Assembly: GCA_964513645.1 (NCBI GenBank)
Contig: CAZENF010000003.1
Location: 127,914 to 191,913, forward strand
Reading direction: 5' to 3'
DNA length: 64,000 nt
Source: an uncultured Candidatus Saccharibacteria bacterium
Lineage (GTDB): Bacteria > Patescibacteriota > Minisyncoccia > 2-02-FULL-40-12 > GWA2-44-9
The notes under the pieces are model-generated. The model did no database searches. It was not told the DNA's origin and saw nothing but the letters and a program-made list of their open reading frames with translations. Positions 5,009-43,783 of this stretch are shown here, one piece after another (position 1 is the stretch's first letter; each line of letters starts with the position of its first letter). The position numbers and the translations under genes were made by a program.

Positions 5009-5046
5009 GCCCCGCCTGATTAAATTCAGGCGGGGCCATTTTATTT
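5009..5046. terminator. Bidirectional intrinsic terminator between convergent genes
   Basis: gccccgcctga-ttaaat-tcaggcggggc perfect 11-bp stem, followed by cattttattta. Confidence 0.75.
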
Positions 5047-25071: not shown

Positions 25072-26925
25072 ATGGCGTCAATCAAAAGAAAAAAAATAAC
25101 CGCCCTTATTCCTTGCTATAACGAAGCCGGAGGTATTGCTGCGGTCATCAATAATTTTCCGTTTGATAAAATTGATTATCAGGGTTTTGACCTCGAGATA
25201 GTTGTTATCGATAACAATTCGAGCGATTCGACTCCGAATATCGCACGTTCGCTCGGCGTAACCGTTCTCCATGAACCGATAAAAGGCAAAGGCAATGCGA
25301 TGCGCCGGGGTTTTAATTACGCCTTATCAAATCACGCCGATTATATCGTCATGCTCGATGGCGACGATACTTACCGTTCAAAAGAAATTTTAAGACTTAT
25401 CGAACCTTTGGATTCCGGTTTTTGCGACGTGGTTGTCGGCTCACGTTTGGGAGGACGTATTCATGATGGCTCGATGACGACTTTTAACAGGATGGGCAAC
25501 TGGGTGTTCTCTCATCTTGTCCGATATTTTTATCAGGTTAACGTAACCGATGTTCTCACCGGTTATTTTGCCTGGACCAAAAAAGCTTTGAAACATCTCG
25601 CCCCGAATCTCAAATCGCAGGGTTTTGCCATTGAAATGGAAATGGTCACTAAAATGGCGCGTCTCGGAGAGGAAATTTACTCTGTACCCATCTCATACGA
25701 TAAACGTGCCGGTGAGACCAACCTTAATCCAGTCTATGACGGTGCCAGGATACTTTGGATGTTTGCCAAAAATCTTGTTTGGAATGCTCCGTTGCAGTCG
25801 GTTCAGCGTATCGTTTTTGTTTCCGATGCCATCATGCCTTATAACAAAGGTGGGAAAGAGCGTCGTCTCTATGAAATAACCAAACGTCTCGTCAGGGAAG
25901 GACGCGAGGTACATATCTATACTATGAAATGGTGGGACGGGCCGTTCATCATTGAACACAACGGAGTATATTTCCATGCCATCTCGAAACTATATCCTTT
26001 ATACAACGGAGGCCACCGCTCGATAAAACAAGCTATCATGTTCGGTCTGGCCACTTTCAAACTTATCTTCGTTGATTTCGATGTTCTCGATGTCGACCAT
26101 ATGCCGTTCTTCCCGCTTTTCAGTGCGAGAATAGTAACCTGGTTAAAGGGTAAAAAACTTCAGGCCACCTGGCATGAGGTCTGGGGCTATAACTACTGGA
26201 TGCACTATTTAAAGGGCCTGAGTGGATTTATCGGATACATTATAGAGAGAACATCTCTTTTAATGCCGGATACAATTATTTCAAACTCGGAACACACTAC
26301 CGGCCGTCTTAAATCGGCGGGATTTAACGGTATCATCCAAACCATTCCCTTAGGAGTGGATGTTCCGAGAATAAAATCAGTCAAGAAAGCAAGCGACAAA
26401 AGCGATGTCATCTTTGTCGGGCGTTTGCTCGAGAATAAGAATGCGGATCTTCTGGTCAAAGCCATTGCTCTCGTTAAATACATCTATCCGAATGTCATCT
26501 GTAAGATCGTCGGTGACGGACCGGAAAAAGATAATATCGAAGGTCTTATCCGCAGACTTGGTCTCGAACAAAATATCCACATCACGTCTTTTGTTGCGGA
26601 AAGCGACGAGCTTTATTCTTTGATGAAGGCCTCTAAGATGCTGGTCTTGCCCTCTATCCGGGAAGGTTTTGGTCTGGTTGTGGTTGAGGCAAATGCGGCC
26701 GGCATCCCTGTTATCACCACATCTCACGAGGATAACGCTGCCCGGCACCTCATTCAGGAAGGCAGCAACGGTCTTCTGGCCGATGCAAGCATGAGAAGTA
26801 TTGCTGAAAAAATAATCAAAATAATGAGGAATGAAAATAAAATGCAGCCCAAAAAAGATATAGAGAAATATGACTGGCCTGTCGTGGTCCAACGAGTGGA
26901 ACAGGTTATAGGGCCGATGCCGTAA
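25072..26925 (+). CDS. Bifunctional glycosyltransferase: N-terminal GT2 (Dpm1-like) fused to C-terminal GT4 (group 1)
   Basis: N-terminal ALIPCYNEAGGI...VVIDNNSSDST...MLDGDDTY (GT-A DXD). C-terminal VGRLLENKNADLL...PSIREGFGLVVVEANAAGIPVITT (GT4 E-x7-E region). Confidence 0.75.
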   Translation: MASIKRKKITALIPCYNEAGGIAAVINNFPFDKIDYQGFDLEIVVIDNNSSDSTPNIARSLGVTVLHEPIKGKGNAMRRGFNYALSNHADYIVMLDGDDTYRSKEILRLIEPLDSGFCDVVVGSRLGGRIHDGSMTTFNRMGNWVFSHLVRYFYQVNVTDVLTGYFAWTKKALKHLAPNLKSQGFAIEMEMVTKMARLGEEIYSVPISYDKRAGETNLNPVYDGARILWMFAKNLVWNAPLQSVQRIVFVSDAIMPYNKGGKERRLYEITKRLVREGREVHIYTMKWWDGPFIIEHNGVYFHAISKLYPLYNGGHRSIKQAIMFGLATFKLIFVDFDVLDVDHMPFFPLFSARIVTWLKGKKLQATWHEVWGYNYWMHYLKGLSGFIGYIIERTSLLMPDTIISNSEHTTGRLKSAGFNGIIQTIPLGVDVPRIKSVKKASDKSDVIFVGRLLENKNADLLVKAIALVKYIYPNVICKIVGDGPEKDNIEGLIRRLGLEQNIHITSFVAESDELYSLMKASKMLVLPSIREGFGLVVVEANAAGIPVITTSHEDNAARHLIQEGSNGLLADASMRSIAEKIIKIMRNENKMQPKKDIEKYDWPVVVQRVEQVIGPMP

Positions 26926-26926
26926 A

Positions 26927-27625
26927 ATGAAAAAAATAAAAGTTACAACCAGCTGGGATGACGGCCATATGCTCGACATCCGTATCGCTAAACTCTTGAG
27001 AAAATACAACCTTAAGGGGACGTTTTTTATTTCTCCCAAGGACAGGGAGCTTTCTCCGACCGAACGTTTGACTGGCGGGGAGATAAAAATGCTGTCCAAA
27101 GAATTTGAGATCGGCGCACATACGATGACGCATCCGCTTTTAACCCGCGTTGAGGACCATATCGCCTATAAGGAAATCCTTGATTCCAAGAATTATCTTG
27201 AAAAGATCCTCCACAAACCGGTTAGAAGTTTTTGTTATCCCGGAGGTTTTTATAAAAAGAAACACCAACTTATCCTAAAAAAGCTCGGCTTTAAGTTAAG
27301 CAGGACAGTCAGCAGATTCGAGACTGAAACTGGTTCGAATTTGTTTGCTGTCCCGACAACTGTCCACGCCTACCGTCATTGGTCGGATATCGTTCCGATA
27401 TTTAAAAATGCCGGCTTCAGAAAATTCCTTTCCCGATATCTGAATTGGGATGAACTGGCCATATCCATGTTCGACAAAATAGCCGAGACCGGAGGCGTTT
27501 TTCATCTATGGGGTCATTCCTGGGAAATAGAAAAAAACAATGACTGGGAAAGATTGGAACGAGTTTTTAAACATATTTCAAATCACGCTAACGCCAAATA
27601 TATAACCAATGGAGACGTCGCCTAA
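26927..27625 (+). CDS. Polysaccharide deacetylase (CE4 / NodB homology domain)
   Basis: TTSWDDGHMLDIRIAKLLRKYNLKGTFFI (TFDDG-like motif 1), GAHTMTHP (motif 2 His); starts 2 nt after the upstream gene. Confidence 0.65.
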   Translation: MKKIKVTTSWDDGHMLDIRIAKLLRKYNLKGTFFISPKDRELSPTERLTGGEIKMLSKEFEIGAHTMTHPLLTRVEDHIAYKEILDSKNYLEKILHKPVRSFCYPGGFYKKKHQLILKKLGFKLSRTVSRFETETGSNLFAVPTTVHAYRHWSDIVPIFKNAGFRKFLSRYLNWDELAISMFDKIAETGGVFHLWGHSWEIEKNNDWERLERVFKHISNHANAKYITNGDVA

Positions 27626-30600
27626 AACAATTCTGCTTGTCGCTCCGTATTTTCCTCCTGACGGCGGCGGTTTAGAACGCTATGCCTTCGAGATCGCCAA
27701 GCGTCTCGCTAAAGGCTACAACTGGCGCATCGTCGTGATGGTGTCCGGCAAAAAATATGGTGAGGATACTAAAGAAGAATCAAACGGCCTGACGATATAC
27801 CGATTAGGATATAGTCTCAAAATTTCTAATACTCCATTAGGATTTTTGTGGTTTGGTAAAATTCGCAAAATTTTAAAGACTGAAAAACCAGATATCATAA
27901 ACATCCACACTCCTGTTCCGGGTATCGGAGATATAACTTCTTTTTTAGCGGGCAGCATCCCGACCGTGGTTACATACCATACCGGCAGCATGCTTAAGAG
28001 TAAGATCTTGCCGGATATTGCTGTCCGGTTATATGAGTACGGGCCTATGAGATTACTTCTGAACCAGGCCAAACATATAATTTGTTCGTCTGACTTTGTC
28101 CGTTTTAATTTTCTTGGGCGCTATATTCATAAAAGCACTACTATCACTCCTGCGGTCGATGTAGATATATTTAAGCCAGATGTCTCAAAAAAAGCTAAAG
28201 ACCCGACTGTATTGTTTGTCGCAGGTCTTGGCCATTCAGAACAGTACAAAGGTCTTGCTACTCTTTTGAATGCCATTTCGATGGTCAAAAATGATATTTC
28301 GAATATCCGACTTATTGTGGCCGGAGACGGGGATATGCGCTCAGAATACGAATCCCAAGCGGAAAAATTAGGAATCGGAAGCTCTGTAGATTTCAGAGGT
28401 AAATTAAGCAATGGCAAATTAGTTGCGGCTTATCAGGAAGCTCACATTTTTGTCTTACCGACATCAAATGACAGTTTTCCTTTAACCATCCTCGAAGCTA
28501 TGGCAACAGAATTGCCTGTGGTCTCAACCAGGATCGGTAGCATACCTTCTATAATTGAAAGCGGTCAAGACGGCTTCTTAATTAACGGATTTACTGCAGA
28601 GGCCGTAGCTTCTGATATATCGAAGATAATTAAAGACGAAATCGTTAAATTGAATTTTGGTCTTGCTGGTCGTAAAAAAGTATTAGATAAGTTTAATTGG
28701 AAATTGCGTGCTGATCAATATCAAAACGTTCTGTCATCTATTTCAGAATTTAAATTAAGGACAGTTCGAAAAATAGCTATTGTAACTCCATATTTTTATC
28801 CCAAGATTGGCGGACTTGAAAATTATGCTCTTGAAATGGGCAGAGCTTTAAGGCGCGACGGTAACGATATTTTTGTCATTACCAGTAATCATTTAAACAA
28901 AAAATGGCAATACGAAGAAATAGAAGGTATGAAGATTTATCGCATGCCAAGATTGTTTAAGATATCGAACACGCCGGTAAATCCTTTATGGTATTTATGG
29001 GTCTGGCGTATTTTAAGGCTTGAAAGACCAGATCTTATCAATGCCCATACCCCTGTTCCATTTATTGCCGATGTGACCGAAAGAGTAAGGGGCAATATAC
29101 CCCTTGTTTTAAATTATCACAATGATCTTGTGAAAAGTAATTTGTTTGCAGATCTGCTTTGTCGCATATCCTATATCTTTATGATAAACAAAACACTGCG
29201 TGATGCAGATAAGATAATAGCGACATCTCAATATTACGCTTCGCAATCCAGTTATTTAAGGCCGCTAATCAGTAAAATTGATTTTGTTCCGCCCGGAGTA
29301 GATATTAATAGATATAAACTCAATCTTGATGCACGCTATTTTAAAGAACGTTTTAAAGATTTTCGCACTGTGCTTTTTGTTGGTCAATTGGATAAAACCC
29401 ACAGACACAAAGGTCTGGACGATATAATAAAAGCCGTTGCCGAACTGAGGTCGTCGATAAAAAATATTAAACTTGTTGTTGTGGGTAAGGGTAATAATAT
29501 TGATTCATATAAAAAATATGCTGCTTCTCTTGGTATTGAAAATCAAGTAAGTTTCGAGGGGTTTGTTGAAGATGATGTATTGCCACAATATTATGCGGGA
29601 GCGGACGTTTTGGTCTTGCCGTCCAAAGATAAGTCAGAAGGTTTCGGGATGGTTATAACTGAGGCAGCTGCCTGCGGTACGCCAGCTGTTGCAAGTAGAA
29701 TCGGAGGAATCCCGGCAGCTCTAATAGACGGAGAGACCGGTATCCTGGTTTCACCTAATAATGTTTTACAACTTTCTGCGGCCATGAAAAAAATACTGGA
29801 CAATGGAACTTTTGCCAAAAAGTTAGGTGATAATGCCAGTTTGCGTATTAAAAAAGAGTTTGCATTATCGGTAGTAACAAGCAAATTTGTGGATATAATT
29901 TGTAAGATCGAGAAGAAAATTTCTATACTGCAAGTAGTGCCTTATTATCCACCCCACATAGGAGGAATGGAATTAAGGGTCAGAGATTTATCTACAAACT
30001 TGGTTAAGGAAAAAGTTGATGTTAATGTCATCACTTCTAACATTGGCGCTCAAAGCGGTTATTCTGAACAGAACGGTGTCAAGGTTAACTATCTGCCAGC
30101 ATTCAATTTTGCTAATACTCCATTTACCCCGGGACTTATATGGTACTTGCTTACTGTAAAAAAGCCCGATGTGTTTCACATACACATATCTCAAGCTTTT
30201 TTTCCGGAAATAGCTGCTATTGTTGCGAAAATAAGAGGTATTCCATACATAACCCATATACGTTTACTAGTTGAAGCATCAGGAGTTTTCGGAATTCTTC
30301 TGCCGATATACAGATATTTTGTATTAAAGCCGGTACTTCTTGGCTCAAAATACGTCATAACTTTGACAGAAGACGATAAGGAAATAGTGAATAATAAATT
30401 TAAGGTCCCGTTACCACGGATAAAAGTAATTCCAAACGCTACAGATTTTGGAATCATTGACTCACCAAGAACTATAACCAAACCTCTCAATATCCTTGCT
30501 GTTGGACGTATATCTCTTCAAAAAAATTATTCATTCATGTTGCAGGTTATGAGTGAATTCAAGAAAATATATGGCCCTGATTTTAAGTTAAAAATTGTTG

Positions 30601-31025
30601 GTACTGGTGACGGTTTATATAACCTTAAAAACGAGGCTGAAAAATTAAATCTCAAAAATAATATTCTATTCTTAGACGAAAAAATAGGTTCAGAACTGGA
30701 AGACATATACAGCAAATCTGATATTTTTCTGCATACATCTACTAAAGAAGGTTTTGGTACTGTTTTTATTGAAGCCATGACCAAGGGCTTGCCAGTGGTA
30801 GCTTCAAATATCCCTGGTTCACGTAATGTGATTATGAATGGAAGGAACGGCTTGTTAAGTGATTTTTCCTCTGAGGATATGGCTAAGAAGCTCGAACTTT
30901 TGTGCAGGGATCAATCCTTATACCAAAAAATCAGTGAAAATAATATTTCAGATGTTAAAAAATACAATTGGGACAATGTAGCGACTGATACGATCAACAC
31001 TTACTTACATGCAAGAAATTTTTAA
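27609..31025 (+). CDS. Triple GT4 glycosyltransferase: three complete tandem GT4 modules in one 1138-aa polypeptide
   Basis: Module starts: TILLVAPYFPPDGGGLERYAFEIA; KIAIVTPYFYPKIGGLENYALEMGRAL; ISILQVVPYYPPHIGGMELRVRDLS. Three C-terminal nucleotide-sugar motifs (DSFPLTILEAMATELPVVST; SEGFGMVITEAAACGTPAVAS; KEGFGTVFIEAMTKGLPVVAS). Confidence 0.75.
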   Translation: METSPKTILLVAPYFPPDGGGLERYAFEIAKRLAKGYNWRIVVMVSGKKYGEDTKEESNGLTIYRLGYSLKISNTPLGFLWFGKIRKILKTEKPDIINIHTPVPGIGDITSFLAGSIPTVVTYHTGSMLKSKILPDIAVRLYEYGPMRLLLNQAKHIICSSDFVRFNFLGRYIHKSTTITPAVDVDIFKPDVSKKAKDPTVLFVAGLGHSEQYKGLATLLNAISMVKNDISNIRLIVAGDGDMRSEYESQAEKLGIGSSVDFRGKLSNGKLVAAYQEAHIFVLPTSNDSFPLTILEAMATELPVVSTRIGSIPSIIESGQDGFLINGFTAEAVASDISKIIKDEIVKLNFGLAGRKKVLDKFNWKLRADQYQNVLSSISEFKLRTVRKIAIVTPYFYPKIGGLENYALEMGRALRRDGNDIFVITSNHLNKKWQYEEIEGMKIYRMPRLFKISNTPVNPLWYLWVWRILRLERPDLINAHTPVPFIADVTERVRGNIPLVLNYHNDLVKSNLFADLLCRISYIFMINKTLRDADKIIATSQYYASQSSYLRPLISKIDFVPPGVDINRYKLNLDARYFKERFKDFRTVLFVGQLDKTHRHKGLDDIIKAVAELRSSIKNIKLVVVGKGNNIDSYKKYAASLGIENQVSFEGFVEDDVLPQYYAGADVLVLPSKDKSEGFGMVITEAAACGTPAVASRIGGIPAALIDGETGILVSPNNVLQLSAAMKKILDNGTFAKKLGDNASLRIKKEFALSVVTSKFVDIICKIEKKISILQVVPYYPPHIGGMELRVRDLSTNLVKEKVDVNVITSNIGAQSGYSEQNGVKVNYLPAFNFANTPFTPGLIWYLLTVKKPDVFHIHISQAFFPEIAAIVAKIRGIPYITHIRLLVEASGVFGILLPIYRYFVLKPVLLGSKYVITLTEDDKEIVNNKFKVPLPRIKVIPNATDFGIIDSPRTITKPLNILAVGRISLQKNYSFMLQVMSEFKKIYGPDFKLKIVGTGDGLYNLKNEAEKLNLKNNILFLDEKIGSELEDIYSKSDIFLHTSTKEGFGTVFIEAMTKGLPVVASNIPGSRNVIMNGRNGLLSDFSSEDMAKKLELLCRDQSLYQKISENNISDVKKYNWDNVATDTINTYLHARNF

Positions 31026-32931
31026 TAAAAACACATTAATAGGGCAAATAAGCGCATACTATCCGCCCCACATAGGCGGAATTGAAAATGTGGTTGAGGC
31101 TGTTAGTAGGGAATTATCTGTGATGGGTCGGAATGTACAGGTGATTACAGCATCTAACTCACACTTATCAGAAAAAAACCATCCTCGTATAATCGGGTTG
31201 AAATATTTTGAAATTGCTCATGTACCTTTTACTCCCGGGCTTCTTTGGTATCTTTTGATGTTGCCCAAAAATTCTTTAATGCATCTTCATATTGCTCATG
31301 CATTTTTTCCAGAGCAAGTATTTATTGCTTCAAAAATAAGGAAGATACCATATATAGTTCATTTTCATCTCGACGTAGGACCATCGACTTTTTTAGGACC
31401 CCTATTCTTGTTATATAAAAAGATTGTCTGGGGGCCTGTTTTGCGCAGCGCAAGTAAGGTTATCGTTTTATCAAATGAACAATTAAGTTTGGTTTCCAGC
31501 AAGTATGGGGTTAAGAAAGAAAATATCGTCATTGTTTCTAATGGTGTGGGCCAAGAATTTATTAAGATCGGTAAGGAGCGTAAATCGTTTAGCAAAACTC
31601 TGCGTCTTCTGTCCGTCGGTCGTTTAGCAATACAAAAACGTCCGGAACGGCTATTGTATGCCATGTTGTCGTTGAATGTTCCTGTACATATGACTTTTGT
31701 TGGGGACGGTGAAGATAGAGAAAAACTTGAAACATTGGCCCGTGAATTGAAACTGACCAATGTCACTTTTGTCGGAAAAAAATTCGGAGACGAATTACTT
31801 GAGTATTACCGCAATTCAGATGTCTTTTTAATATCTTCAGATGAAGAGGGGATGCCCTTAGTGGTACTCGAAGCCATGGCTTCCGGTCTGCCTGTTATTG
31901 GTACGGATGTCATCGGTACACGTGAACTTGTAAAAGATACAGGGTTGCTTGTAGCCGAGCCATACCTCCAGAATTTTACATATGCCATAAGTAAACTTCA
32001 TTATAATCCAGAATTAGTAAAAGAATTGTCACAAAAAAGTGTTGAGAAAGCCAGTTCTTATACTTGGGCCAGTGCGGTTGAAAAAATAACTAAAATTTAT
32101 ACCGATATTTTAAAAAATGATGTTGTCTCACAAAATCGTAACCGGGAAATTGAGTTCTGGGACAATGTTAGCAAGAGAGATAAAGAATGGATTGTCAGTA
32201 CACCAAAGGAAGAAATCGAACAATTTATAGTTGATAAAATACGGAGAGGAAATACCAGATGGTGGGAGCCGATGATTGGCAAGTTAGAGGGCAAAAAAAT
32301 ATTAGACATAGGGTGTGGTACAACTTTTTTTGCGACATACTGGTCGTTGACGGGTAATGATTCTTTTGGTTCCGACTATTCACCAGAAACTATCAAAACA
32401 AATAATCTTTTACACGAAAAATTAGGATTGAAAAAGAATTTTTATGTTGCTTCGTCCGAGAAAATAGATGCAGCGGATAACTCTTTGGATGTAGTGCATA
32501 TGCGTTGGGTAATACATCATATACCACCAGAATTACAAAATAGCTCTATGTATGAGATAAAACGAGTTCTTAAACCTGGCGGAAAACTTATCGTATTTGA
32601 AACCAATTATGCCTACCCATTTAGATGGATAGTTCAGACACCGATATTGCGTAGTTTAAATTTTTTAAGACATTACGCTATAAATAAAGGTTGGTTAGAC
32701 CCAGAAGAAAAAGCTCTAACCAACGAAGGATATATAAATCTTATTGAGAATAATGGCTTTAAGATAAATATTGTTGACCACGATTTTACGTTCTTCTACT
32801 ACCCAGTAAGTTTATTGACCCGAAATGAATTCATAAGAAACTTAGTTCGGGAGTTTGATAATACAATCAGATCAATTATATCGGATAGGTTTAGTAAGGA
32901 TATTAAAATAATTGCAGAAAAATATGAATGA
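31009..32931 (+). CDS. GT4 glycosyltransferase fused to a C-terminal class I SAM-dependent methyltransferase
   Basis: N-terminal ISAYYPPHIGGIENVV...EGMPLVVLEAMASGLPVIGT. C-terminal ILDIGCGTTFFATYW (MTase motif I), LDVVHMRWVIHHI, LKPGGKLIVFE (motif post-II/III). Overlaps upstream by 17 nt. Confidence 0.75.
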   Translation: MQEIFNKNTLIGQISAYYPPHIGGIENVVEAVSRELSVMGRNVQVITASNSHLSEKNHPRIIGLKYFEIAHVPFTPGLLWYLLMLPKNSLMHLHIAHAFFPEQVFIASKIRKIPYIVHFHLDVGPSTFLGPLFLLYKKIVWGPVLRSASKVIVLSNEQLSLVSSKYGVKKENIVIVSNGVGQEFIKIGKERKSFSKTLRLLSVGRLAIQKRPERLLYAMLSLNVPVHMTFVGDGEDREKLETLARELKLTNVTFVGKKFGDELLEYYRNSDVFLISSDEEGMPLVVLEAMASGLPVIGTDVIGTRELVKDTGLLVAEPYLQNFTYAISKLHYNPELVKELSQKSVEKASSYTWASAVEKITKIYTDILKNDVVSQNRNREIEFWDNVSKRDKEWIVSTPKEEIEQFIVDKIRRGNTRWWEPMIGKLEGKKILDIGCGTTFFATYWSLTGNDSFGSDYSPETIKTNNLLHEKLGLKKNFYVASSEKIDAADNSLDVVHMRWVIHHIPPELQNSSMYEIKRVLKPGGKLIVFETNYAYPFRWIVQTPILRSLNFLRHYAINKGWLDPEEKALTNEGYINLIENNGFKINIVDHDFTFFYYPVSLLTRNEFIRNLVREFDNTIRSIISDRFSKDIKIIAEKYE

Positions 32932-35303
32932 ATAAAGTGCGTATTAAAATCTCGACAATATTAATTGTATCCATAGTTTGGTGGGCGGTCTTTGTGTGCC
33001 TGTCTTTGCTTCAGTTTAATCCGTTTGAAATTCTGAACATTACGGGTTTTCTTTTTCTAATTATTATTCCAGGCCTCTTAACCGTTTTGACTTTGGGTTT
33101 GGCCAATCTTGAATTCTGGGCAGCATCTGCTTTTGTTGTGGCATTCAGTATTTTTGAACTGATGTTAACCGCTCTTCTTGGCAACACCTTTTTGCCTTAT
33201 ATTGGTTTTCCACATCCGTTCCTGCCGAATATACTTATGACCCAGGTCTCGGTCCTGTTCTGGGTCCTGATTGGCATAAATTTATACGACGGAAATAAAT
33301 TTGAATTTAATATCCCGCGCTATTTTATTTTCAAAGACTTTAAGAATTTCTGCTTTGCCACTCTTTCGGTCTTGTTTGTTGTCTTAAGTATTTTCGGCGC
33401 TATACGGCTGAATAACGGGGCAAGTAATATTCTGACTATGATTATGCTCGGTTCTATGGGTCTTTATTTTGCTGTGATGCTTTTTAATCAGGATAAGTTC
33501 GAGGAGAACACGATACTTACAGGTTTGTATTTTATTGCTTTAGCTCTTCTTTTAATGACGAGTCTGCGTGGTTGGTATATTACCGGGCATGATATTCAGT
33601 CTGAATTCAAGGTTTTTCAGTTGCTTAAGGAAGATGCAGTCTGGAATATTGCGGCCTATCGTGATGCATACAATGCCTGTTTAAGCATTACTATTCTTCC
33701 GTCGATATTTTCATTCTTGCTCCGCATTCCTGACCAATACATATATAAACTTCTTTTCCAGATAATATTTGCCTTTTCTGTACCGGTTATATACATGACT
33801 GGACGCAAATGGGCAGGTCCGAGAATTTCTCTCCTTGGAATTTTATATTTCATCGGATTTCCAACATTTTTCACTGATATGCCGTTTCTTATTCGCCAGG
33901 AGACCGCCTTCCTGTTCTATGGGCTTATGCTCTATTCAATATTTGCAGCTGATCTTGAAATATTTACACGCCGGATGCTTTTTATCCTTATGGGCTTCGG
34001 TGTAATATTTTCCCACTACTCTACTACATATACGGTTTTGATGATATTTGGTTTAGCTGTTTTTTTCCGGCCAATACTTATCAAACTATTTGAAAGATTT
34101 GAAGACTCATATCTTGTCAAAAAATCAGGACTTGCGTCTTTGCTTGCTTATAACAGTCATGAAAAAGGTAAGATTACTATGGGCATGATTTTTCTCTTAC
34201 TTGCGGCGAGCTTTTTCTGGACGTCCAGTATCACTCAGACAGGAGGAGGTTTATCCAAAGTAATAAATGAGACAGTCTCAGCAGTGCAAAACGGTTTTGG
34301 AGAGGGGAACCGCTCGATTGATATAAATACGCTTCTTAGTTTCAGCCATCCTGACCAAAACCAAGAAATGCAGGGGTTTATCAAAAATTCAATAGGTAAG
34401 ATACGTGCCCAAGCAAATCCGGGCATATTTTATCCCGAAAAATCTTATAGCCAATACTCATTCTCCGCCTTACCGCAGGAATTAGTGCCTTTAACAGGCG
34501 GAGCTCAATGGCTGATTAATCACGGTATAAACATCGGAAAAATTATGACACTGTTTGGTTCCATTCTCGGAAAGCTGATAGAGGTTCTGGCTCCTTTGGG
34601 TATGATACATGTTTTGTTCAAAAAGAAGGTAGTTACATACATAGATGATGAGATCTATCTTATATCATTTTTCTCATTTGTGTTTATTCTTATGAACATC
34701 GTTTTGCCGGTGCTCTCGACTGAATACGGAATATTCCGTGCAATGCAGCAAGCAATGTTCATTATTGCCCCTATTATAGTATTGGGCAGTATGTCGTTGG
34801 GGGATATTTTGGCCAAAATTATCAGACATTCTAAAACAGCAATTATTTTTGCCACGCTTATGGCTCTGGTATTTTTCACTTATTCCACCTCTTTTGACCG
34901 CGAACTTATCGGCGGCTATTCAGCGGTTCTCCATTTAAGTAATTACGGTACCTATTATGACAACTATCTTATTCATGATGTTGAGGTTGTTGGTGTAGAA
35001 TGGATAACCAATATAGCTACAGCCAACCCGGAGAACATCAACGGAGTCCGGCTCTCGGTTCAAACCGACAGATATTCACGGGCAAAATTCGCATCATTAA
35101 CTACCTTGTCGACGGACAATGATATTTTTCCTGGGGTAGTTAGGAAATCGGCTTATGTATTCTTAAACCTGGCTAACGTAACCAAACAGCGTGCCGTAGC
35201 GTTCTATAATGGCGACCCTATTGCTTATGCTTATCCTGTAAAATTTTTGGATGAAAATAAAAACCTTATCTATGACAGCAACGGAGCCAGGGTTTATAAA
35301 TAA
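32928..35303 (+). CDS. Large polytopic membrane protein (putative GT-C-type glycosyltransferase, polymerase or YfhO-like)
   Basis: 791 aa. More than 12 predicted TM helices in two blocks separated by a predicted extracytoplasmic region, plus a 150-aa C-terminal soluble domain. No signature motif recognised. Overlaps upstream by 4 nt. Confidence 0.4.
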   Translation: MNKVRIKISTILIVSIVWWAVFVCLSLLQFNPFEILNITGFLFLIIIPGLLTVLTLGLANLEFWAASAFVVAFSIFELMLTALLGNTFLPYIGFPHPFLPNILMTQVSVLFWVLIGINLYDGNKFEFNIPRYFIFKDFKNFCFATLSVLFVVLSIFGAIRLNNGASNILTMIMLGSMGLYFAVMLFNQDKFEENTILTGLYFIALALLLMTSLRGWYITGHDIQSEFKVFQLLKEDAVWNIAAYRDAYNACLSITILPSIFSFLLRIPDQYIYKLLFQIIFAFSVPVIYMTGRKWAGPRISLLGILYFIGFPTFFTDMPFLIRQETAFLFYGLMLYSIFAADLEIFTRRMLFILMGFGVIFSHYSTTYTVLMIFGLAVFFRPILIKLFERFEDSYLVKKSGLASLLAYNSHEKGKITMGMIFLLLAASFFWTSSITQTGGGLSKVINETVSAVQNGFGEGNRSIDINTLLSFSHPDQNQEMQGFIKNSIGKIRAQANPGIFYPEKSYSQYSFSALPQELVPLTGGAQWLINHGINIGKIMTLFGSILGKLIEVLAPLGMIHVLFKKKVVTYIDDEIYLISFFSFVFILMNIVLPVLSTEYGIFRAMQQAMFIIAPIIVLGSMSLGDILAKIIRHSKTAIIFATLMALVFFTYSTSFDRELIGGYSAVLHLSNYGTYYDNYLIHDVEVVGVEWITNIATANPENINGVRLSVQTDRYSRAKFASLTTLSTDNDIFPGVVRKSAYVFLNLANVTKQRAVAFYNGDPIAYAYPVKFLDENKNLIYDSNGARVYK

Positions 35304-35304
35304 T

Positions 35305-38300
35305 ATGAAATTCATAATCGTAAATTCATTTCACAGAGACGACAAAGGTGACGCAGCGCTCACCCATGTTTTGATCGATCAGCTTTTATCCATCGACCCG
35401 AAGGCCGACATTGCTGTTTCGAGCATGGAGGAACCGTCCAACTACCCTTCATTTTATAAGGGACGCAATATCGGTTCTATCGAGCTTTATTCATCCTCAC
35501 AAATTCACCCCGGCTTGAGCCATATATTTTACAAAGTGTACTCGTTCTTAGCATTGTTTTTAACCGCCGAGGCTGGTAAAAAATTCTCATGGGTATTATC
35601 CAAAGACCTCGCTAAGATATACGAAGAATACAGAATAGCTGATATGATAATTTCTGTCGGAGGCGGATACTTTACAACTAAGCCTAACTTTGGCAGCCGT
35701 CTGCATTTGCTGTTTGCTCTTGAAACGTTAATGCTTTGCAAACGCATGGGCCTTAAAGTTGTTACCGCTCCGGTATCGGTCGGGCCGTTTCAGTATTCAT
35801 ACGAAGCCAGATATGCTTCCCGAATACTTAAAAAAATGGACTTGGTGATGTTGCGGGAAGATGTAAGTAAGAAATATTTTGTTGATAAGGAAGACAACCT
35901 GCCGGAAAACATTATTCGTGTACCTGACAGCGCTTTTGCTTTTAATCCGGAAGGGGATTTTGATTTGCGCGGTCTGGTTAAGGTAAAACCTGAACAAAAA
36001 ATTCTTATTTTAAGCGTACGCAACTGGCTCTTGTCGGATAAACAATCAGTTTACGAAAAAGCCCATGCCGATCTAATTGACCACATTGCTCAAAAATATC
36101 CGGATATTTTGCCAGTATTCATAAATCAATGCACCTTTCCTGATGTCAGTGAAGATGACCGTCTTGTTGTCGAAAGGATAATGGCGATGTCCAAGTCGAA
36201 AAAAGCGGCGTTTATTGCCGAAGATCTCGACTATATAAAGGTAAAACTTGCATATAAGCAGGCGGATTTTGTGATAGGTACGAGATTTCATGCCATGGTA
36301 TTCGGTCTGGCTTATCAGGTACCGGGAATTGCAATTGAGTATGAACATAAAACCCGCGGTATTATGCGTGACTTAGGTCTTGAAGAATGGGTAATTTCTA
36401 TTAGCAAAGTAACTTCAGAAAAACTTATTCAGCTATTCGGCGATATAGTAAAATTCCGAGAATTTTATAAAGAGCATTTGAAGAAGATAATGCCAGGGTA
36501 TAGTCACTCCACCGACAACGCCGTGAATATACTTTTAAATGTACTTCGAAAAAGAAACGAAGTTTATGTTCCCGGTAAAATAAGTCAAAAAATTAATAAA
36601 ATAATTTCTAAATTATATAACGACAGCTTATACAGAAATTCTTTTTATCTTATATTGGCCACCGCCGTTTTAGCCGGATTTGGATTTTTCTTCTGGCTCA
36701 TCAGTGCCCATTATATTTCGGCGGAGCAGATAGGAATTGCTACTGCTCTTATCTCGGCAATGAATATTATTGCCATTTTAAGTTTGATAGGTTTTGACAG
36801 CGCTATTGTCAGGTTTTTGTGGCATTCAACTAAGCGGAATGACAAACTCAATACCGCAATTATCTTGGTTGGTTCGGCTGCAACCCTGTTAAGCACAGCT
36901 TTCCTGTTGTTCTTGCCTTATATATCACCTAAGCTCGAATTTATCAGAAATAGTCCGCTAACTCTTTTTGCATTCATAATTTTCTGTGTCATGTCGTCTA
37001 TAAATATCCTTACCGATGCTGTTTTTTTGGCGTATCGAAAAACTGATTTTTCAATGATTATAAATACGATCTTCAGTTTCGTTAAAATGCTGTTGCCTTT
37101 GCTTTTTGTAAGATGGGGTGCATTTGGGATATTTTCAGCCGCTGCCATCGGCCAGTCGGTCGGGTTCATTTTGAGTATTTTTGCGATGATATGGAAATTT
37201 GATTATAAACCTAAATTTGTTGTGAATATGGAAATAGTCCGCGAGGTCTGGGATTATTGCGCCGCTAATTATGTGGCCGGTATTTTTAACCTTATCCCGG
37301 TAATGCTTTTGCCCATAATTATTACTAATCACCTCGGTTCGGCCCAAGCGGCCTATTTCTATATCGTTATGATGATAGCTAACCTCCTTTATGTTATTCC
37401 GCAGGCCGCCAATCGTTCTCTTTTTGCCGAGGGAGCTTTTGATGAAAAATCTTTCCATAAAAACATAGACAAAGCCGTTAAGATGATAGGCATATTACTT
37501 TTGCCGGCAATAATTATCTTTATTCTGGGCGGCAATTTTATACTTTCATTTTTCGGTAAAAATTATTCCGCCGAGGGCATCAATTTCTTTTATCTTGTTA
37601 TTTTTTCAGGTTTATCGGTAAGCATGTATTCTCTCTCAAACTCATTGTACCGGGTCAAGAAACAACTTACCCCGCTTATTATTTCAAACGCTGTCTATGC
37701 CTTCACGATCTTAGCTACCGCTTATCTCTTGCTTGATCACGGTCTGGTCGGCATTGGTCTTGCCTGGTTTGCCGGTAATACTTTGGCCTGTGTCGGATAT
37801 TTATTTTATATGAAAGAAGCTGAATATAAAATGATAGGCCGCGGTTGGCAGTATACGGTCTATGATATGGGAAATAGCAGAGTAGAAAAGAAGTATAATT
37901 CAATTTTTTTGTCCTATTTTATGATGTTTAAGGACGCGTTCAGGTATTTAAGGATGCCGGACCTGGCTTTCAGGAAGTATTATCGGGAAACTCAAAAAAT
38001 AGCCATGAACTCTCTTGAAAAAGTAATGGCTTCTCCTCTTGATAAAAATTTGTTCGGTAATCCGAAAATGATAGGAACTGTTGGATATGAGCAGGACCAC
38101 CTTAAGTCTCTTGGTAAGTATTTTATGGAACATAGCGCGGACGAATCAAAGGATAAGATAGACCGGGTGGTCAAATTTTGTCTGATGCTGTTCGAGCACT
38201 CATTGGCGGAAAAATATTTTAATATAGCAGACAATTTTGGTCTGGATGCTTCAGGTAATATCGTGTTGATAGATCTTGGGGAAATTATTGATTCGCGGGA

Positions 38301-38424
38301 AGAAATATCCGTTCAGATAAAAAACCGGGCATGGTCCGCCCCGGACGTTATTTCCGAGTTTCCGGAAAAACTACGCGGGTATTTTGTCCGGTCAATGGAT
38401 AATGCATTTGCCAATAAAATATAA
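35305..38424 (+). CDS. Fusion protein: polysaccharide pyruvyl transferase (CsaB/WcaK family) + Wzx-like MOP flippase + C-terminal soluble domain
   Basis: N-terminal ISVGGGYFTT...DFVIGTRFHAMVFGLAYQVPGIAIEYEHKTRG (PS_pyruv_trans). Middle: at least 12 TM with Wzx/polysaccharide-biosynthesis-protein pattern. C-terminal 240 aa unassigned. Start taken at ATG 35305 (2 nt after upstream stop); the track start at 35251 overlaps the upstream gene. Confidence 0.6.
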   Translation: MKFIIVNSFHRDDKGDAALTHVLIDQLLSIDPKADIAVSSMEEPSNYPSFYKGRNIGSIELYSSSQIHPGLSHIFYKVYSFLALFLTAEAGKKFSWVLSKDLAKIYEEYRIADMIISVGGGYFTTKPNFGSRLHLLFALETLMLCKRMGLKVVTAPVSVGPFQYSYEARYASRILKKMDLVMLREDVSKKYFVDKEDNLPENIIRVPDSAFAFNPEGDFDLRGLVKVKPEQKILILSVRNWLLSDKQSVYEKAHADLIDHIAQKYPDILPVFINQCTFPDVSEDDRLVVERIMAMSKSKKAAFIAEDLDYIKVKLAYKQADFVIGTRFHAMVFGLAYQVPGIAIEYEHKTRGIMRDLGLEEWVISISKVTSEKLIQLFGDIVKFREFYKEHLKKIMPGYSHSTDNAVNILLNVLRKRNEVYVPGKISQKINKIISKLYNDSLYRNSFYLILATAVLAGFGFFFWLISAHYISAEQIGIATALISAMNIIAILSLIGFDSAIVRFLWHSTKRNDKLNTAIILVGSAATLLSTAFLLFLPYISPKLEFIRNSPLTLFAFIIFCVMSSINILTDAVFLAYRKTDFSMIINTIFSFVKMLLPLLFVRWGAFGIFSAAAIGQSVGFILSIFAMIWKFDYKPKFVVNMEIVREVWDYCAANYVAGIFNLIPVMLLPIIITNHLGSAQAAYFYIVMMIANLLYVIPQAANRSLFAEGAFDEKSFHKNIDKAVKMIGILLLPAIIIFILGGNFILSFFGKNYSAEGINFFYLVIFSGLSVSMYSLSNSLYRVKKQLTPLIISNAVYAFTILATAYLLLDHGLVGIGLAWFAGNTLACVGYLFYMKEAEYKMIGRGWQYTVYDMGNSRVEKKYNSIFLSYFMMFKDAFRYLRMPDLAFRKYYRETQKIAMNSLEKVMASPLDKNLFGNPKMIGTVGYEQDHLKSLGKYFMEHSADESKDKIDRVVKFCLMLFEHSLAEKYFNIADNFGLDASGNIVLIDLGEIIDSREEISVQIKNRAWSAPDVISEFPEKLRGYFVRSMDNAFANKI

Positions 38425-38432
38425 ACTGAACC

Positions 38433-39638
38433 ATGAAAATATCCAACATTCGAACGAAGATAGATAGTGACACCGTTACTCTGATGGCCGACTGCAAGAT
38501 AAGGCCGGTAGGTATTGACACAGTATATTTTAAATTCCCACTTAAATATAGGAATTTTATCTATGAAGATGCAAGTCCTTTCGCTGCGGCTTTATTGATA
38601 CCTTCGATGTATTTTGATCAATCTCTCGAGATAGACGGAACGATAAGCGCCAAACTCTATGAAGGGATGCACAAGGCCCAAGACGTTCTTTTGGGCTGGA
38701 ACTTAAAAGACCCAAGGTTAAATAGAATAGAGATAAAAGTTAAGAATACTGCCAGGGATTCCGCATCTCCGGATAAAGTTGCAATGTTTTTTTCCGGAGG
38801 GGTGGACTCCTTTCATACTTTTCTTAAACATGAACATGACAAAATTGACCCCCTCACACACTTAATACTGGTTAATGGCAATGATATCGATATTCGCAAC
38901 AAACAATTATGGTCAGAAACAAGTGAGAGAATCGGAGCGGTCGCCAAAGAAACGGGCAAGGAAGTGATAGAAGTTGAAACAAACGTTCAGGTATTGACAG
39001 AGCCGATGTTAAACCCTGAATATACTCACGGTGGAAATCTCGGAGCGATGGGGTTATGCCTTCGAGGCGGACTTAAAAAAATATACATTGCTTCAACTTT
39101 CAGCTATGAACAGAATATGCCGTACGGTTCGAGTCCGGAGCTTGATTATTTATGGAGCAGTGAAGTTTTACAATTTGAACACGACGGTGCCGAAACCATA
39201 AGAGTTAAGAAAGTTGAGGATTTCATTGCCAAATCCCCGCTTGCATTGAAATATCTACGGGTCTGTAACCGCAATGTCAAAGGTACTTATAATTGCGGCA
39301 AATGTGAAAAATGTACCCGTACAATGCTTAACTTATATATGGCCGGGGCGTTGGATAAGGCACAAACTCTCCCGCATATTATTGATCCCAAACTTTTGGC
39401 ATGTAATGTTTCTCTCGATGGTCCAACCAACGACAGTTATACGCGACTTCATAAGACTATGATCGAAAAGAATATCGATAAAGAACTTCGGGATGCGGTT
39501 AAGTGGGGAGTAGATAATATGATAACAGTCTCTCAAACCCCTAAAGAAAAAATTATCCGCGGGATGATACGCCTTGACCATATGTATTTAAGAGGTTTCC
39601 TGTTCAAGATATGGTTAAGTATCGTTCATCCGTATTAA
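38433..39638 (+). CDS. PP-loop ATP pyrophosphatase family protein with QueC-like C-terminal zinc motif (candidate sugar amidotransferase)
   Basis: FFSGGVDSFHTF (SGGxDS PP-loop) at about residue 115. C-terminal C-x9-CGKCEKC resembles the QueC zinc site. N-terminal 110 aa unassigned. Last gene of the co-directional glycan cluster. Confidence 0.45.
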   Translation: MKISNIRTKIDSDTVTLMADCKIRPVGIDTVYFKFPLKYRNFIYEDASPFAAALLIPSMYFDQSLEIDGTISAKLYEGMHKAQDVLLGWNLKDPRLNRIEIKVKNTARDSASPDKVAMFFSGGVDSFHTFLKHEHDKIDPLTHLILVNGNDIDIRNKQLWSETSERIGAVAKETGKEVIEVETNVQVLTEPMLNPEYTHGGNLGAMGLCLRGGLKKIYIASTFSYEQNMPYGSSPELDYLWSSEVLQFEHDGAETIRVKKVEDFIAKSPLALKYLRVCNRNVKGTYNCGKCEKCTRTMLNLYMAGALDKAQTLPHIIDPKLLACNVSLDGPTNDSYTRLHKTMIEKNIDKELRDAVKWGVDNMITVSQTPKEKIIRGMIRLDHMYLRGFLFKIWLSIVHPY

Positions 39639-39767
39639 ACAGTAATAAACCTTGATAGTGTTACGGTAAAATATTTGTAAGAATAGTCATTTTTTCCACG
39701 TTTTTTAATTCGTTTTTTTAATGTAAATTTTAAAAAAATTACGTAAGTTTTAAGCCGGAAAAACGTC

Positions 39768-39796
39768 TTGTAGAAACAGTTTTAAACTGCTACAAT
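39768..39796 (+). promoter_or_regulatory. Sigma70-like promoter (TTGTAG-17-TACAAT) overlapping the annotated ATG of the downstream gene
   Basis: ttgtag at 39768-39773, 17-nt spacer, tacaat at 39791-39796. If used, translation starts downstream (candidate ATG 39843, MNNNSEGK...). Confidence 0.4.
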
Positions 39797-42440
39797 GACA
39801 TCATTAAATTTAGCTTTTTCAGGCCAGGACTTACTATTTCCAATGAACAACAATTCGGAGGGAAAATTATACATTGCGGGTATCTTGGTTGCCTTGGCCG
39901 TCATAATATTGGCGGGATATTTCCTATCCCCGTTTTCGTTTACTTTTGATCTTGCTAATTTACACGGTTCTCTTCAGGGCGGGAAGAATCCTCAACAGTA
40001 CGCCGCTTTGGTTTCTCCCGGCCTTGATACAACTCCTCCGATTGTAAGTTCCTTCGATATGCAACCCCGGACTATCAGTGCGGGCAATTATGCCACCGCC
40101 TCTTTTAATGTTACCGACTCTGGTGGCTCTCATATTGTCCGTGTTGCTCTTAACCGTGCGCCGTATAGCTCCTCCGGTTGTAATGTCGCTGATAAGTCAA
40201 GTTGTGACTGGATAAGCGTTGCAAATTCAAATACTTCTTCTGGCCTCGATTCCTGGACCGGGACTTTGATGGATAACCCTGGCCAGGGTACTTGGTGGTA
40301 CGGTTTTATGGTGGTGGACGGTGCCAATAATTTCGGCTATGAACCGGCTACAGTCGAGGTCATAGTTACAGCTGCTGTTCCGACCCCGACTCCGGGTGCG
40401 GATACTATCAAACCCAAAGTAACTTCTTTTGATGTTCAACCCCGAAATATAAATGTTGGTAGCTCTGTTAAAGTTTCCTTTACAGTAGTTGATTCTGGTG
40501 GTTCACATTTGAGTCGTGTTGGTATCAATCGGGCTTTATATAATTCAACCAACTGCAATGCTTCGGTAAAAACCGGTTGTCAGTGGGTCAGTGGCGGAAG
40601 ATTGTATCCTACAAGCGGATTAGATTCATGGTCTTCAAGTGCTGATAATTCTCCTGCTCTTGGAACATGGTGGTATGGTATATATGTAACTGATAATGGC
40701 GGTAATTTCGGATACGAGCCATATCAGATACAGGTTATCGTAAATCCTGCCTCGACACCTACTGCAACTCCATCACCAACTGCGACTCCTACGCCCACAC
40801 CAACTCCGACACCGAGGCCGAGTTCAACGTCGGTTCCGACGCCTACGCCCGGTTCAGGAGGACCTGGACCTACTACGCCTCCGACACCTACTCCGACTCC
40901 GACACCTGTTCCGACCGGCAGCGACACTATAAGACCGAAAGTAAACGCTTTTGATGTTCAACCTCGAACCCTTAACGTTGGCGGTTCAGTTCTGGCAACC
41001 TTTACTGTTTCTGATACCGGTGGCTCTCACTTATCTAAAGTCGGCTTCAGTCGGGCATCATATAATTCTTCAAATTGCAGCGAAACAGTAAAAACCACCT
41101 GCCAGTGGGTCAGTTTAGCAAAGACAGCGACACCTTATACCGACAACTGGAATTCTTCCTGGGCCGATACTCCTTCCGCCGGAACCTGGTGGTATGGAAT
41201 GTCTGCGACAGATGGCGCCGGCAATGTTGGCTATGAACCGGCAACGCTCGAAGTGTTCGTGAATACTGTTTCTTCAACCCCGACTTCGACTCCTGTTCCG
41301 GTTCCTACTGCCACTCCAAGCCAAACTCCTGTTCCGACACCTGCCCCAACTCCAACTCCGATACCTACGCCCGTTCCTACGGCAATTCCGACACCGACTC
41401 CAACTCCGTCACCAACTGTAACCCAGAATTATTCTTTTGGTTTTTCTGTAGCTGAAAGTTTCCTACCTTTATCAAGTGCTGAACTAAATGCTCGTATGGA
41501 TGATTTAGTGGCTTTGCATATTGGCTGGCTAAGGTTTGATATCGACTGGTCATCAGTGCAAGGACTAAATTCAACAATCTTTGATTGGACAGCTATAGAT
41601 AATTTAATAAGTGCAGCCAATTCGCATCACATAAAGCTTATGCCGGTTATTGATTCGACTCCACCTTGGGCTCGGCCGGCTAATTGTACTTCTAATAAAT
41701 GGTGTCCGCCGGCTGATAATAATGCTTTCGCAAATTTTGCCAAAGCTGTTGTTCAACGTTATACACCTCAAGGAGTCCATACTTGGGAAATATGGAACGA
41801 ACCCAATATCAATAGTTTTTGGCAATCTGGCCCTAATTCATCAGCTTATGCAAATCTTTTGACGGCAACCTATAATGCGATCAAAAGCGTAGATTCTTCC
41901 GCAACTGTTATATCGGCAGGATTGGCTCCTGCCGCCACTCAAGGTTCAACTATATCGCCAGTAGATTTCTTAACCAGTATGTATCAGGCGGGAGCCAAAA
42001 ATTACTTTGACGCTGTCGGTTTTCATCCATATTCATTCCCGGCCATGCCTTCTTACTACGCGGTTTGGAATGCCTGGTCGCAGATGTCCTCTACACCCAC
42101 AAGTTTGCGAAGTGTAATGTCGGCCAACGGAGATTCGGCTAAACAGATATGGTTAACCGAATATGGCGCACCTACAGGAGGGCCAGGAGCCGTTGCAGAC
42201 GTTAATAATTATAACTTCTCGGCCAGCCCGGATCATGTTACCGAAGCATTACAAGCGTCGATGTATCAGGATTCTATTAATTTGGTCCGGGGCTATTCAT
42301 GGGCCGGACCAATGTTCTTCTATTCCTATAAAGACTTAGGTACCTCTTCGAGCACCAACGAGAACTTCTTTGGCGTAATAAGATATGACGGCACTCAAAA
42401 ACCGGCTTATCAGACGGTAAAACAACTACTCGCCCAATAG
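39795..42440 (+). CDS. Secreted multidomain glycoside hydrolase: three repeated ~115-aa beta-domains joined by Pro/Thr-rich linkers + C-terminal GH5-like (clan GH-A) catalytic domain
   Basis: N-terminal signal/TM; three repeats (FD(M/V)QPR..(V/A)SF.V.DSGGSH..RV...RA.Y.S..C.....C.W.S......TWWYG......N.GYEP....V.V); PTPTPTPTP linkers; catalytic EIWNEPN (acid/base) and IWLTEYGAPTGG (nucleophile) motifs. True start may be 39843. Confidence 0.7.
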   Translation: MTSLNLAFSGQDLLFPMNNNSEGKLYIAGILVALAVIILAGYFLSPFSFTFDLANLHGSLQGGKNPQQYAALVSPGLDTTPPIVSSFDMQPRTISAGNYATASFNVTDSGGSHIVRVALNRAPYSSSGCNVADKSSCDWISVANSNTSSGLDSWTGTLMDNPGQGTWWYGFMVVDGANNFGYEPATVEVIVTAAVPTPTPGADTIKPKVTSFDVQPRNINVGSSVKVSFTVVDSGGSHLSRVGINRALYNSTNCNASVKTGCQWVSGGRLYPTSGLDSWSSSADNSPALGTWWYGIYVTDNGGNFGYEPYQIQVIVNPASTPTATPSPTATPTPTPTPTPRPSSTSVPTPTPGSGGPGPTTPPTPTPTPTPVPTGSDTIRPKVNAFDVQPRTLNVGGSVLATFTVSDTGGSHLSKVGFSRASYNSSNCSETVKTTCQWVSLAKTATPYTDNWNSSWADTPSAGTWWYGMSATDGAGNVGYEPATLEVFVNTVSSTPTSTPVPVPTATPSQTPVPTPAPTPTPIPTPVPTAIPTPTPTPSPTVTQNYSFGFSVAESFLPLSSAELNARMDDLVALHIGWLRFDIDWSSVQGLNSTIFDWTAIDNLISAANSHHIKLMPVIDSTPPWARPANCTSNKWCPPADNNAFANFAKAVVQRYTPQGVHTWEIWNEPNINSFWQSGPNSSAYANLLTATYNAIKSVDSSATVISAGLAPAATQGSTISPVDFLTSMYQAGAKNYFDAVGFHPYSFPAMPSYYAVWNAWSQMSSTPTSLRSVMSANGDSAKQIWLTEYGAPTGGPGAVADVNNYNFSASPDHVTEALQASMYQDSINLVRGYSWAGPMFFYSYKDLGTSSSTNENFFGVIRYDGTQKPAYQTVKQLLAQ

Positions 42441-42441
42441 C

Positions 42442-42669
42442 TTGAATAAATACGAATTAAAACTTATTCGTTCGCTTAGTTTGACGTTGTTTGTTTTCAG
42501 TTTTGCCGGCTGGGTTTATATTGCCGGGAACGCGATATCTCATCCCTGGACCCTCGATATGCCGCTGACTCATTTTGTTGATTTTCCGCGCGAAGATACT
42601 TTTGGTGTGGCTTGTTTCGGGATATCTTTTGTCTCGTTTTTTATCTATAATCTCGTAAAAGAAAACTGA
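42442..42669 (+). CDS. Small membrane protein
   Basis: 75 aa, two hydrophobic helices; no recognisable domain. Confidence 0.3.
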   Translation: MNKYELKLIRSLSLTLFVFSFAGWVYIAGNAISHPWTLDMPLTHFVDFPREDTFGVACFGISFVSFFIYNLVKEN

Positions 42670-42670
42670 T

Positions 42671-43783
42671 ATGAAAAAGCATTTACTCAACAAAAAATTC
42701 CTGTACGGATTGGTTGTTCTTTTTTTTATCATTCTGGTATTTACTTGGTATTCCGTCAGGAGCATGCCGGTTGTCGTTAATTTAAAAACTCCTCAACCCG
42801 CAAAGCTTAATTACCGTTTCGGTTTATCGGTCAGCCAGTCCTTGCTTTATAATTTAACCGATAACGAACTCAATTCCCGTTTAGACGATATTGCATCGAT
42901 GAACATTGGTTGGCTAAGATTTGATATCGACTGGTCTTCTGTCCAGCCGTCCGGTCCGGATTATTATGACTGGTCAGAAATTGATCGTCTCGTTGCAGGT
43001 GCGAACGTGAGAAATATAAAGCTCTTGCCGATAATCGACAATGTCCCGGCTTGGGCCAGGATTTCCGGATGTCATACTGCCTGGTGTCCGCCGGCAGATG
43101 ACAATACTTTTGCTAATTTTGTGTCAACTGTTGTAAGGCGGTACTCCTCCAAAGGCATTACCACTTGGGAAATATGGAATGAACCGAATATGAGAGGATT
43201 CTGGAAACCTGTACCTAACCCTGGAGCATATGCCGAACTTTTAAGAGCAGTATTCTTGGTGATAAAAAAACAGGAATCTTCCGCGACCGTTATTTTGGGC
43301 GGTCTCGGTTCAGCTGACCCTGATTACGGTGATATTTATGCCGCCGGTTTTTTGTCGTCGATTTATAAAGCCGGAGCCGGGCCGTATTTTGATGCGGTTG
43401 CATTTCATCCATACTCTTATCCCGGTGAACCTTCCTCTGATTTTCCGAGGAACAGTTGGCCCCAGATGCTTCAGACCGGTTCGGGTTTGCTTAGCGTGAT
43501 GGCTTCGAACGGAGACTCGTATAAAAAAATATGGTTGACCGAATTCGGCGCGCCGACTGGCGGTCCTGATTCCGTAACCGAAGACGGGCAGGCCTCGATA
43601 ATTCAGGATGCTGTCGGCTTGTGGCGGAACTATGACTGGGCAGGGCCTTTGTTCGTCTATACTTATAAGGATTCAGGCACCAATCCCAACACCAATGAAA
43701 ATTTCTTCGGCCTCCTCCGTTATAATGGTACTCAAAAGCCTGCATATAATTTGCTCAAAAACTTTGCAACTACGGTAAAGTAA
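42671..43783 (+). CDS. Membrane-anchored GH5-like (clan GH-A) glycosidase, paralog of the catalytic domain of the upstream gene
   Basis: NIGWLRFDIDWSSVQ, NIKLLPIIDNVPAWAR, TTWEIWNEPNMRGFW, YFDAVAFHPYSYP, IWLTEFGAPTGGP, NENFFGLLRYNGTQKPAY; block-for-block parallel to residues 520-881 of the upstream protein. Confidence 0.7.
   Translation: MKKHLLNKKFLYGLVVLFFIILVFTWYSVRSMPVVVNLKTPQPAKLNYRFGLSVSQSLLYNLTDNELNSRLDDIASMNIGWLRFDIDWSSVQPSGPDYYDWSEIDRLVAGANVRNIKLLPIIDNVPAWARISGCHTAWCPPADDNTFANFVSTVVRRYSSKGITTWEIWNEPNMRGFWKPVPNPGAYAELLRAVFLVIKKQESSATVILGGLGSADPDYGDIYAAGFLSSIYKAGAGPYFDAVAFHPYSYPGEPSSDFPRNSWPQMLQTGSGLLSVMASNGDSYKKIWLTEFGAPTGGPDSVTEDGQASIIQDAVGLWRNYDWAGPLFVYTYKDSGTNPNTNENFFGLLRYNGTQKPAYNLLKNFATTVK

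Follow-up and report, generated by a model that had tools for sequence, protein, structure and literature searches.

In this study, we analysed a 64,000-nt stretch of DNA (the window) from an uncultured Candidatus Saccharibacteria bacterium and found in it a conserved glycan locus that includes an ORF of 1039 codons plus stop (35305..38424, + strand) encoding a three-module membrane protein. The upstream genes of the locus (25072..35303, +) encode a GT2-GT4 protein (25072-26925), a polysaccharide deacetylase (26927-27625), a triple GT4 protein (27609-31025), a GT4-methyltransferase (31009-32931), and a 791-aa DUF2206 membrane protein (32928-35303), all on the + strand. The downstream genes (38433..43783, +), likewise all on that strand, encode a conserved 401-aa protein that could be placed in no family (38433-39638), followed by a secreted repeat protein of 881 aa that includes a GH5/GH39-like domain (39795-42440) and by a GH5/GH39-like protein of 370 aa (42671-43783). 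Comparison of the 401-aa neighbour with PDB sequences returned nothing. The methyltransferase domain of the GT4-methyltransferase matched generic class I SAM methyltransferases only, with no WbdD among the 28 PDB matches listed. The window showed no gene for an initiating phosphoglycosyl transferase.

The upstream gene order is syntenic with that of the related loci L007, L009, and L048, and comparison across related genomes demonstrated that the three modules are encoded there singly or are fused in other ways. L007 carries glycosyltransferase genes, DUF2206, a fused pair of pyruvyl transferase (PvT) domains, a Wzx gene on the − strand, the 401-aa protein, and a GH gene; L009 carries GT4, DUF2206, a PvT-GT4 fusion, Wzx (−), and the 401-aa protein; and L048 carries the deacetylase, two GT4 genes, DUF2206, Wzx (−), a GH gene, a 72-aa ORF, and a kinase-like gene. 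In L050, Wzx (−, 66% identity) is followed after a 71-nt gap by a kinase-like gene (+, 51% identity) and a GH gene, while L010 and L011 have Wzx (−), GH, and the kinase-like gene, and L006 has DUF2206, a kinase-like-GT4 fusion, and Wzx (−).

The ORF scan gave a single uninterrupted open frame, 35251..38424 (+). The upstream gene stops at 35303 and an ATG follows one base later at 35305; the N-terminus predicted from this ATG matches that of the homologue P0002 (MKFLIVNSF...). The gene is therefore likely to be 35305-38424, the span given in the initial annotation, with a product of 1039 aa. A scan for promoters and terminators yielded counts no better than those of shuffled sequence. The related loci all encode the modules by separate genes, with the flippase gene on the opposite strand, and an internal Met843 lies two residues away from where the C-terminal module ancestrally started, so an assembly or sequencing artefact, with the cell making two or three separate proteins, was considered. 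Against it, the reading frame is unbroken over 3.1 kb, through both junctions, and an identical protein (P0001) is recorded both in an NCBI genome and in the Logan assembly of SRR12313479, although the two are perhaps not independent samples. Moreover, the position of the family start Met (Met in 72 of 76 sequences) is occupied here by Tyr841, indicating that the fusion has become fixed, and reading of the junction sequence revealed no well-placed ribosome-binding site upstream of Met843. An artefact is thus highly improbable, and these data demonstrate that the PvT-Wzx-kinase-like protein is the product of one real gene in a Patescibacteria-type genome.

The N-terminal module (residues 1-395; 35305..36489, +) is a PEP-dependent ketal-pyruvyl transferase domain (PF04230) that is predicted to be cytoplasmic. 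A Pfam match to PS_pyruv_trans spans residues 14-348 and takes in the whole model (positions 2-280 of 280; E = 4e-28; 99.6 bits, cutoff 25.3). Both motifs on which the initial annotation had based its pyruvyl transferase assignment were found, GGGYF being located at residue 119 and TRFHAM at 326. The PEP-binding residues are R306/H308/K328 in CsaB and R337/H339/K361 in Pvg1p (PMC10435577). The corresponding R327, H329, and K349 (His +20) of the present protein are invariant in an alignment of 10 homologous PvT domains and have the same spacing as in CsaB. With the equivalog models, the domain reached 79 bits for CsaB (TIGR03609; cutoff 213), 106 for WcaK (TIGR04006; cutoff 399), and 95 for WcaK (NF007452; cutoff 727); all three scores are far below their cutoffs, excluding a CsaB or WcaK orthologue. 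Like the ketal-pyruvyl transferases of the Wzx/Wzy pathway (WcaK, CsaB, WcfO, and ExoV), the domain belongs to PF04230 over the full model length, has the R-x-H...K(+20) spacing, is cytoplasmic by prediction (PMC6801904, PMC10435577), and is encoded in a flippase-dependent glycan locus; it differs in being an orthologue of none of the characterised enzymes and in being covalently tied to a flippase. In a structure search with the full model, the domain matched GT-B-like UDP-GlcNAc 2-epimerases. Model confidence was low in its N-terminal half, residues 1-220 being poorly modelled because few pyruvyl-transferase homologues were present in the AF2 input alignment. Residues 396-428 (36490..36588, +) form a linker to the flippase, with pLDDT below 50 at residues 400-423; from these values and from the point at which alignments begin, we took it as the first fusion junction. 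In the literature we found no description of a pyruvyl transferase-flippase fusion or of pyruvyl transferases in Patescibacteria.

The second module (residues 429-838; 36589..37818, +) is a Wzx-type flippase of the MOP superfamily with 12 transmembrane (TM) helices and both termini predicted inside. The Pfam match to Polysacc_synt (PF01943) at residues 443-700 is by itself marginal (28.3 bits, gathering cutoff 28.2); however, the module is 54% identical to the standalone flippase of L007, for which PF01943 and PF13440 are on record, and 40-66% identical to the standalone orthologous Polysacc_synt genes of the syntenic loci, whose products align from about residue 430 onward. The AF2 model has 12 TM helices between residues 441 and 836 with a pLDDT of about 90. 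A hydropathy scan gave 11 peaks, and the twelfth helix (about 814-835) was read from the sequence. Foldseek matched WzxE (9g9n), MATE, and MurJ, WzxE giving the best TM-score normalised to the target (0.76). These results bear out the MOP-family flippase with 12 or more TM segments that had been proposed from the sequence. Compared with WzxE, which also has 12 TM helices, the present protein barely reaches the Pfam gathering cutoff and carries a large, predicted cytoplasmic enzyme domain on each terminus.

Topology prediction had been suggested as a check on which side of the membrane the PvT domain lies. No hydrophobic segment precedes that domain, and the flippase loops contain 17 Lys and Arg residues on the side of the N-terminus and 4 on the opposite side, following the positive-inside rule. 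The existence of fusions in which the flippase precedes the PvT domain indicates that the two flippase termini lie in the same compartment. Taken together with the 12 TM helices, these observations predict a cytoplasmic PvT domain, as the initial annotation required, and not an extracytoplasmic one. The window contains a separate MurJ gene (5045-6403, −), suggesting that the Wzx module is not the lipid II flippase. Given this gene and the content of the locus, we infer that the Wzx module moves a polyprenyl-diphosphate-linked repeat unit.

It had also been proposed that a secondary cell-wall polymer of the CsaB type is pyruvylated and exported by the protein, its pyruvate ketal serving as the anchor for surface proteins with SLH domains. 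Patescibacteria have Gram-positive-like envelopes, which suits such a polymer, and the PS_pyruv_trans domain is genuine and keeps its PEP-binding residues. CsaB-type pyruvylation of lipid-linked ManNAc generates the known SLH ligand (PMC6030368, PMC10435577). Nevertheless, none of the 48 window proteins scanned had an SLH Pfam match, the domain scores lower with the CsaB model than with either WcaK model, its homologues are named by JGI as colanic acid/amylovoran biosynthesis proteins, and the window encodes a sortase, which represents a different anchoring route. The proposal thus found no support in the window, and an SLH-anchoring polymer is improbable.

The third module (residues 841-1039; 37825..38421, +), predicted to be cytoplasmic, is a minimal protein-kinase-like (PKL) domain with a bilobal kinase fold. 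The initial annotation had described it as an unassigned soluble tail of about 240 residues; it is about 200 residues long and can be assigned by fold. Searches with this tail against Pfam, NCBIfam, and PDB sequences returned zero matches, and the query did not match the AceK kinase domain (PF06315); weak PF06315 matches were obtained with 20 of 63 relatives (best E = 3.3e-5), and a family profile aligned with PDB AceK in the catalytic loop only (E about 0.007). The PKL signature comprises G845-x-G847, V860-x-K862, E929-Q930-D931, E969-K970, N977-x-G979, and D990-L-G992-E993, the motifs being assigned from secondary-structure position in the model and from the AceK alignment. G845/G847, K862, N977, and D990, all present in the query, are invariant or nearly so in 76 family sequences, and the last three are the usual nucleotide- or metal-binding positions of kinases. 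The canonical HRD position (972, five residues before N977) is Phe, which is non-acidic; of the conserved acidic residues the closest, D/E969, precedes N977 by eight residues. No conserved alpha-C Glu was seen in helix 867-880. Compared with Bud32, RIO, and AceK, to none of which the query has a significant sequence match, the catalytic loop differs (D/E-K-x-F-N-x3-N-x-G), an invariant YEQD motif is specific to the family, and the taxonomic range is Patescibacteria. The C-terminal extension of P0011, a homologue of the flippase only, was rejected as a relative of the tail since BLASTP revealed no similarity; it is a different domain, in which ATP-grasp similarity is faintly hinted at.

About 370 sequence clusters, mostly from Patescibacteria, make up the uncurated family to which the PKL domain belongs, and within it our comparison demonstrated one clade, that of the present domain, which is found only inside the glycan locus. 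In a neighbour-joining tree (no bootstrap support), all six locus-linked kinase-like sequences form one group, separate from copies that have other gene neighbourhoods. At 36 of 38 species-representative genome loci of the family, no match to glycan-locus proteins lies within about 4 kb, and the contexts inspected in detail contain housekeeping genes (pth, ftsZ/ftsA, SMC) with no recurring neighbour. A search for a neighbour conserved across the family likewise found none, the association with the locus being confined to the one clade. As most members lie outside the glycan locus, the ancestral substrate may not be a glycan. In P0127, a polytopic membrane protein is joined to the same kinase-like domain, representing a second, independent fusion.

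Two known proteins connect a protein-kinase fold with lipid-linked glycan export. WbdD, the kinase-methyltransferase of E. coli O9a, has a protein-kinase (PKL) fold and works at the cytoplasmic face, where it phosphorylates a glycan linked to polyprenol, a modification required for export (PMC3482155); the locus described here also has a SAM-methyltransferase domain, in this case fused to GT4. MviN, the MurJ of Mycobacterium tuberculosis, has a cytoplasmic pseudokinase that is a substrate of PknB and holds back cell-wall synthesis by recruiting FhaA (PMC12599244). Both MviN (PDB 3UQC) and the present protein consist of a MOP-type flippase for lipid-linked glycans followed by a cytoplasmic PKL domain. 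However, MviN is a MurJ-type lipid II flippase, whereas here the flippase is of the Wzx type and MurJ is encoded separately; the MviN domain is a full-size Hanks-type pseudokinase with VALT in place of VAIK and without DFG, which cannot bind ATP (PMC12599244), whereas the present domain is a 200-aa minimal fold retaining Lys, Asn, and Asp; and the extra TM segment and extracellular domain of MviN are absent here. Identity with the MviN/ActPs3 flippase-pseudokinases is excluded by the Wzx-type flippase, the separate MurJ, and the retained Lys and Asp.

Following the MviN precedent, the PKL domain could regulate the flippase, whether as a protein kinase, as an ATPase switch in the manner of Bud32/RIO, or as a scaffold, without modifying any glycan. 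Its closest folds, Bud32, Rio1/2, PknB, and AceK, are all protein kinases or ATPases and include no sugar kinases, its catalytic loop is non-canonical, and the location of most of the family outside the glycan locus fits a general cellular role. On the other hand, the retention of K862, N977, and D990, which MviN has not preserved in this way, makes the domain look catalytic as judged from its residues. In L006 the kinase-like domain is fused to GT4 in the slot taken in L009 by PvT-GT4, an arrangement that suits a decorating enzyme better, and in L048, L010, and L011 the kinase-like gene stands alone and does not adjoin the flippase gene. We consider a regulatory role rather unlikely, though a more serious contender than an SLH-anchoring polymer.

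The best overall explanation, to which we give a probability of roughly 60%, is that pyruvylation, phosphorylation, and flipping of the repeat unit are joined in one protein. Ketal-pyruvyl transferases are known to work on Und-PP-linked units in the cytoplasm ahead of Wzx export (PMC6801904). By this scheme, a repeat unit would be assembled at the cytoplasmic face on a polyprenyl-diphosphate carrier and given a pyruvate ketal by the N-terminal domain, and the C-terminal PKL domain would most likely phosphorylate the same lipid-linked glycan, by analogy with WbdD; the joined flippase would then carry the decorated unit outward for polymerisation. Tethering of both decorating enzymes at the flippase entrance would channel the substrate and favour the export of finished units only.

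How unusual the architecture is depends on which part is considered. In the database searches that we ran, nothing comparable to the triple fusion that includes the C-terminal domain was found, and a search of genome contigs with the whole 1039-aa protein found no relative. Flippase-PvT fusions as such are known in the opposite order, in seven clusters of Kitasatospora and metagenome proteins (P0004-P0010). These have the same two domains, each 30-35% identical to those described here, but with the flippase N-terminal and the PvT domain C-terminal, and they lack a kinase-like domain; the entries bearing an organism name all come from Kitasatospora (Actinobacteria), where NCBI names them "polysaccharide pyruvyl transferase family protein". 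The reverse order looks like the result of an independent fusion event. For the present gene, we infer an ancestral order of PvT (+), Wzx (−), and kinase-like (+), near to that kept in L050 and L007. Inversion of the Wzx gene would set the three frames in their present order on one strand, and both joins must also have become in-frame.

The surface glycans of candidate phyla radiation (CPR) bacteria are little known, yet these episymbionts rely on surface contact with their hosts. The locus recurs in several Patescibacteria genomes with its decorating modules shuffled and variously fused, providing a natural experiment that can reveal which enzymes work together, and the fusion places pyruvylation and a putative kinase-like activity at the cytoplasmic mouth of a flippase. 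It also offers, from gene context, a first indication of what an uncurated kinase-like family does, tying it to surface-glycan synthesis. If the kinase-like domain phosphorylates glycan, it would represent a kinase fold of very small size directed at sugars, and also the third protein-kinase-fold domain, after WbdD and the MviN pseudokinase, that acts on the export of lipid-linked glycans or is tethered to it. More tentatively, and with the odds somewhat against it, the family may represent a new Patescibacteria group of 200-aa minimal protein-kinase-fold enzymes, one clade of which has turned into a lipid-linked repeat-unit kinase and become part of a three-in-one pyruvate, phosphate, and flip machine. 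If so, its fusion states (with Wzx, with GT4, and standalone) would serve as a Rosetta stone and the first functional handle on an orphan family in the bacterial radiation that is least understood.

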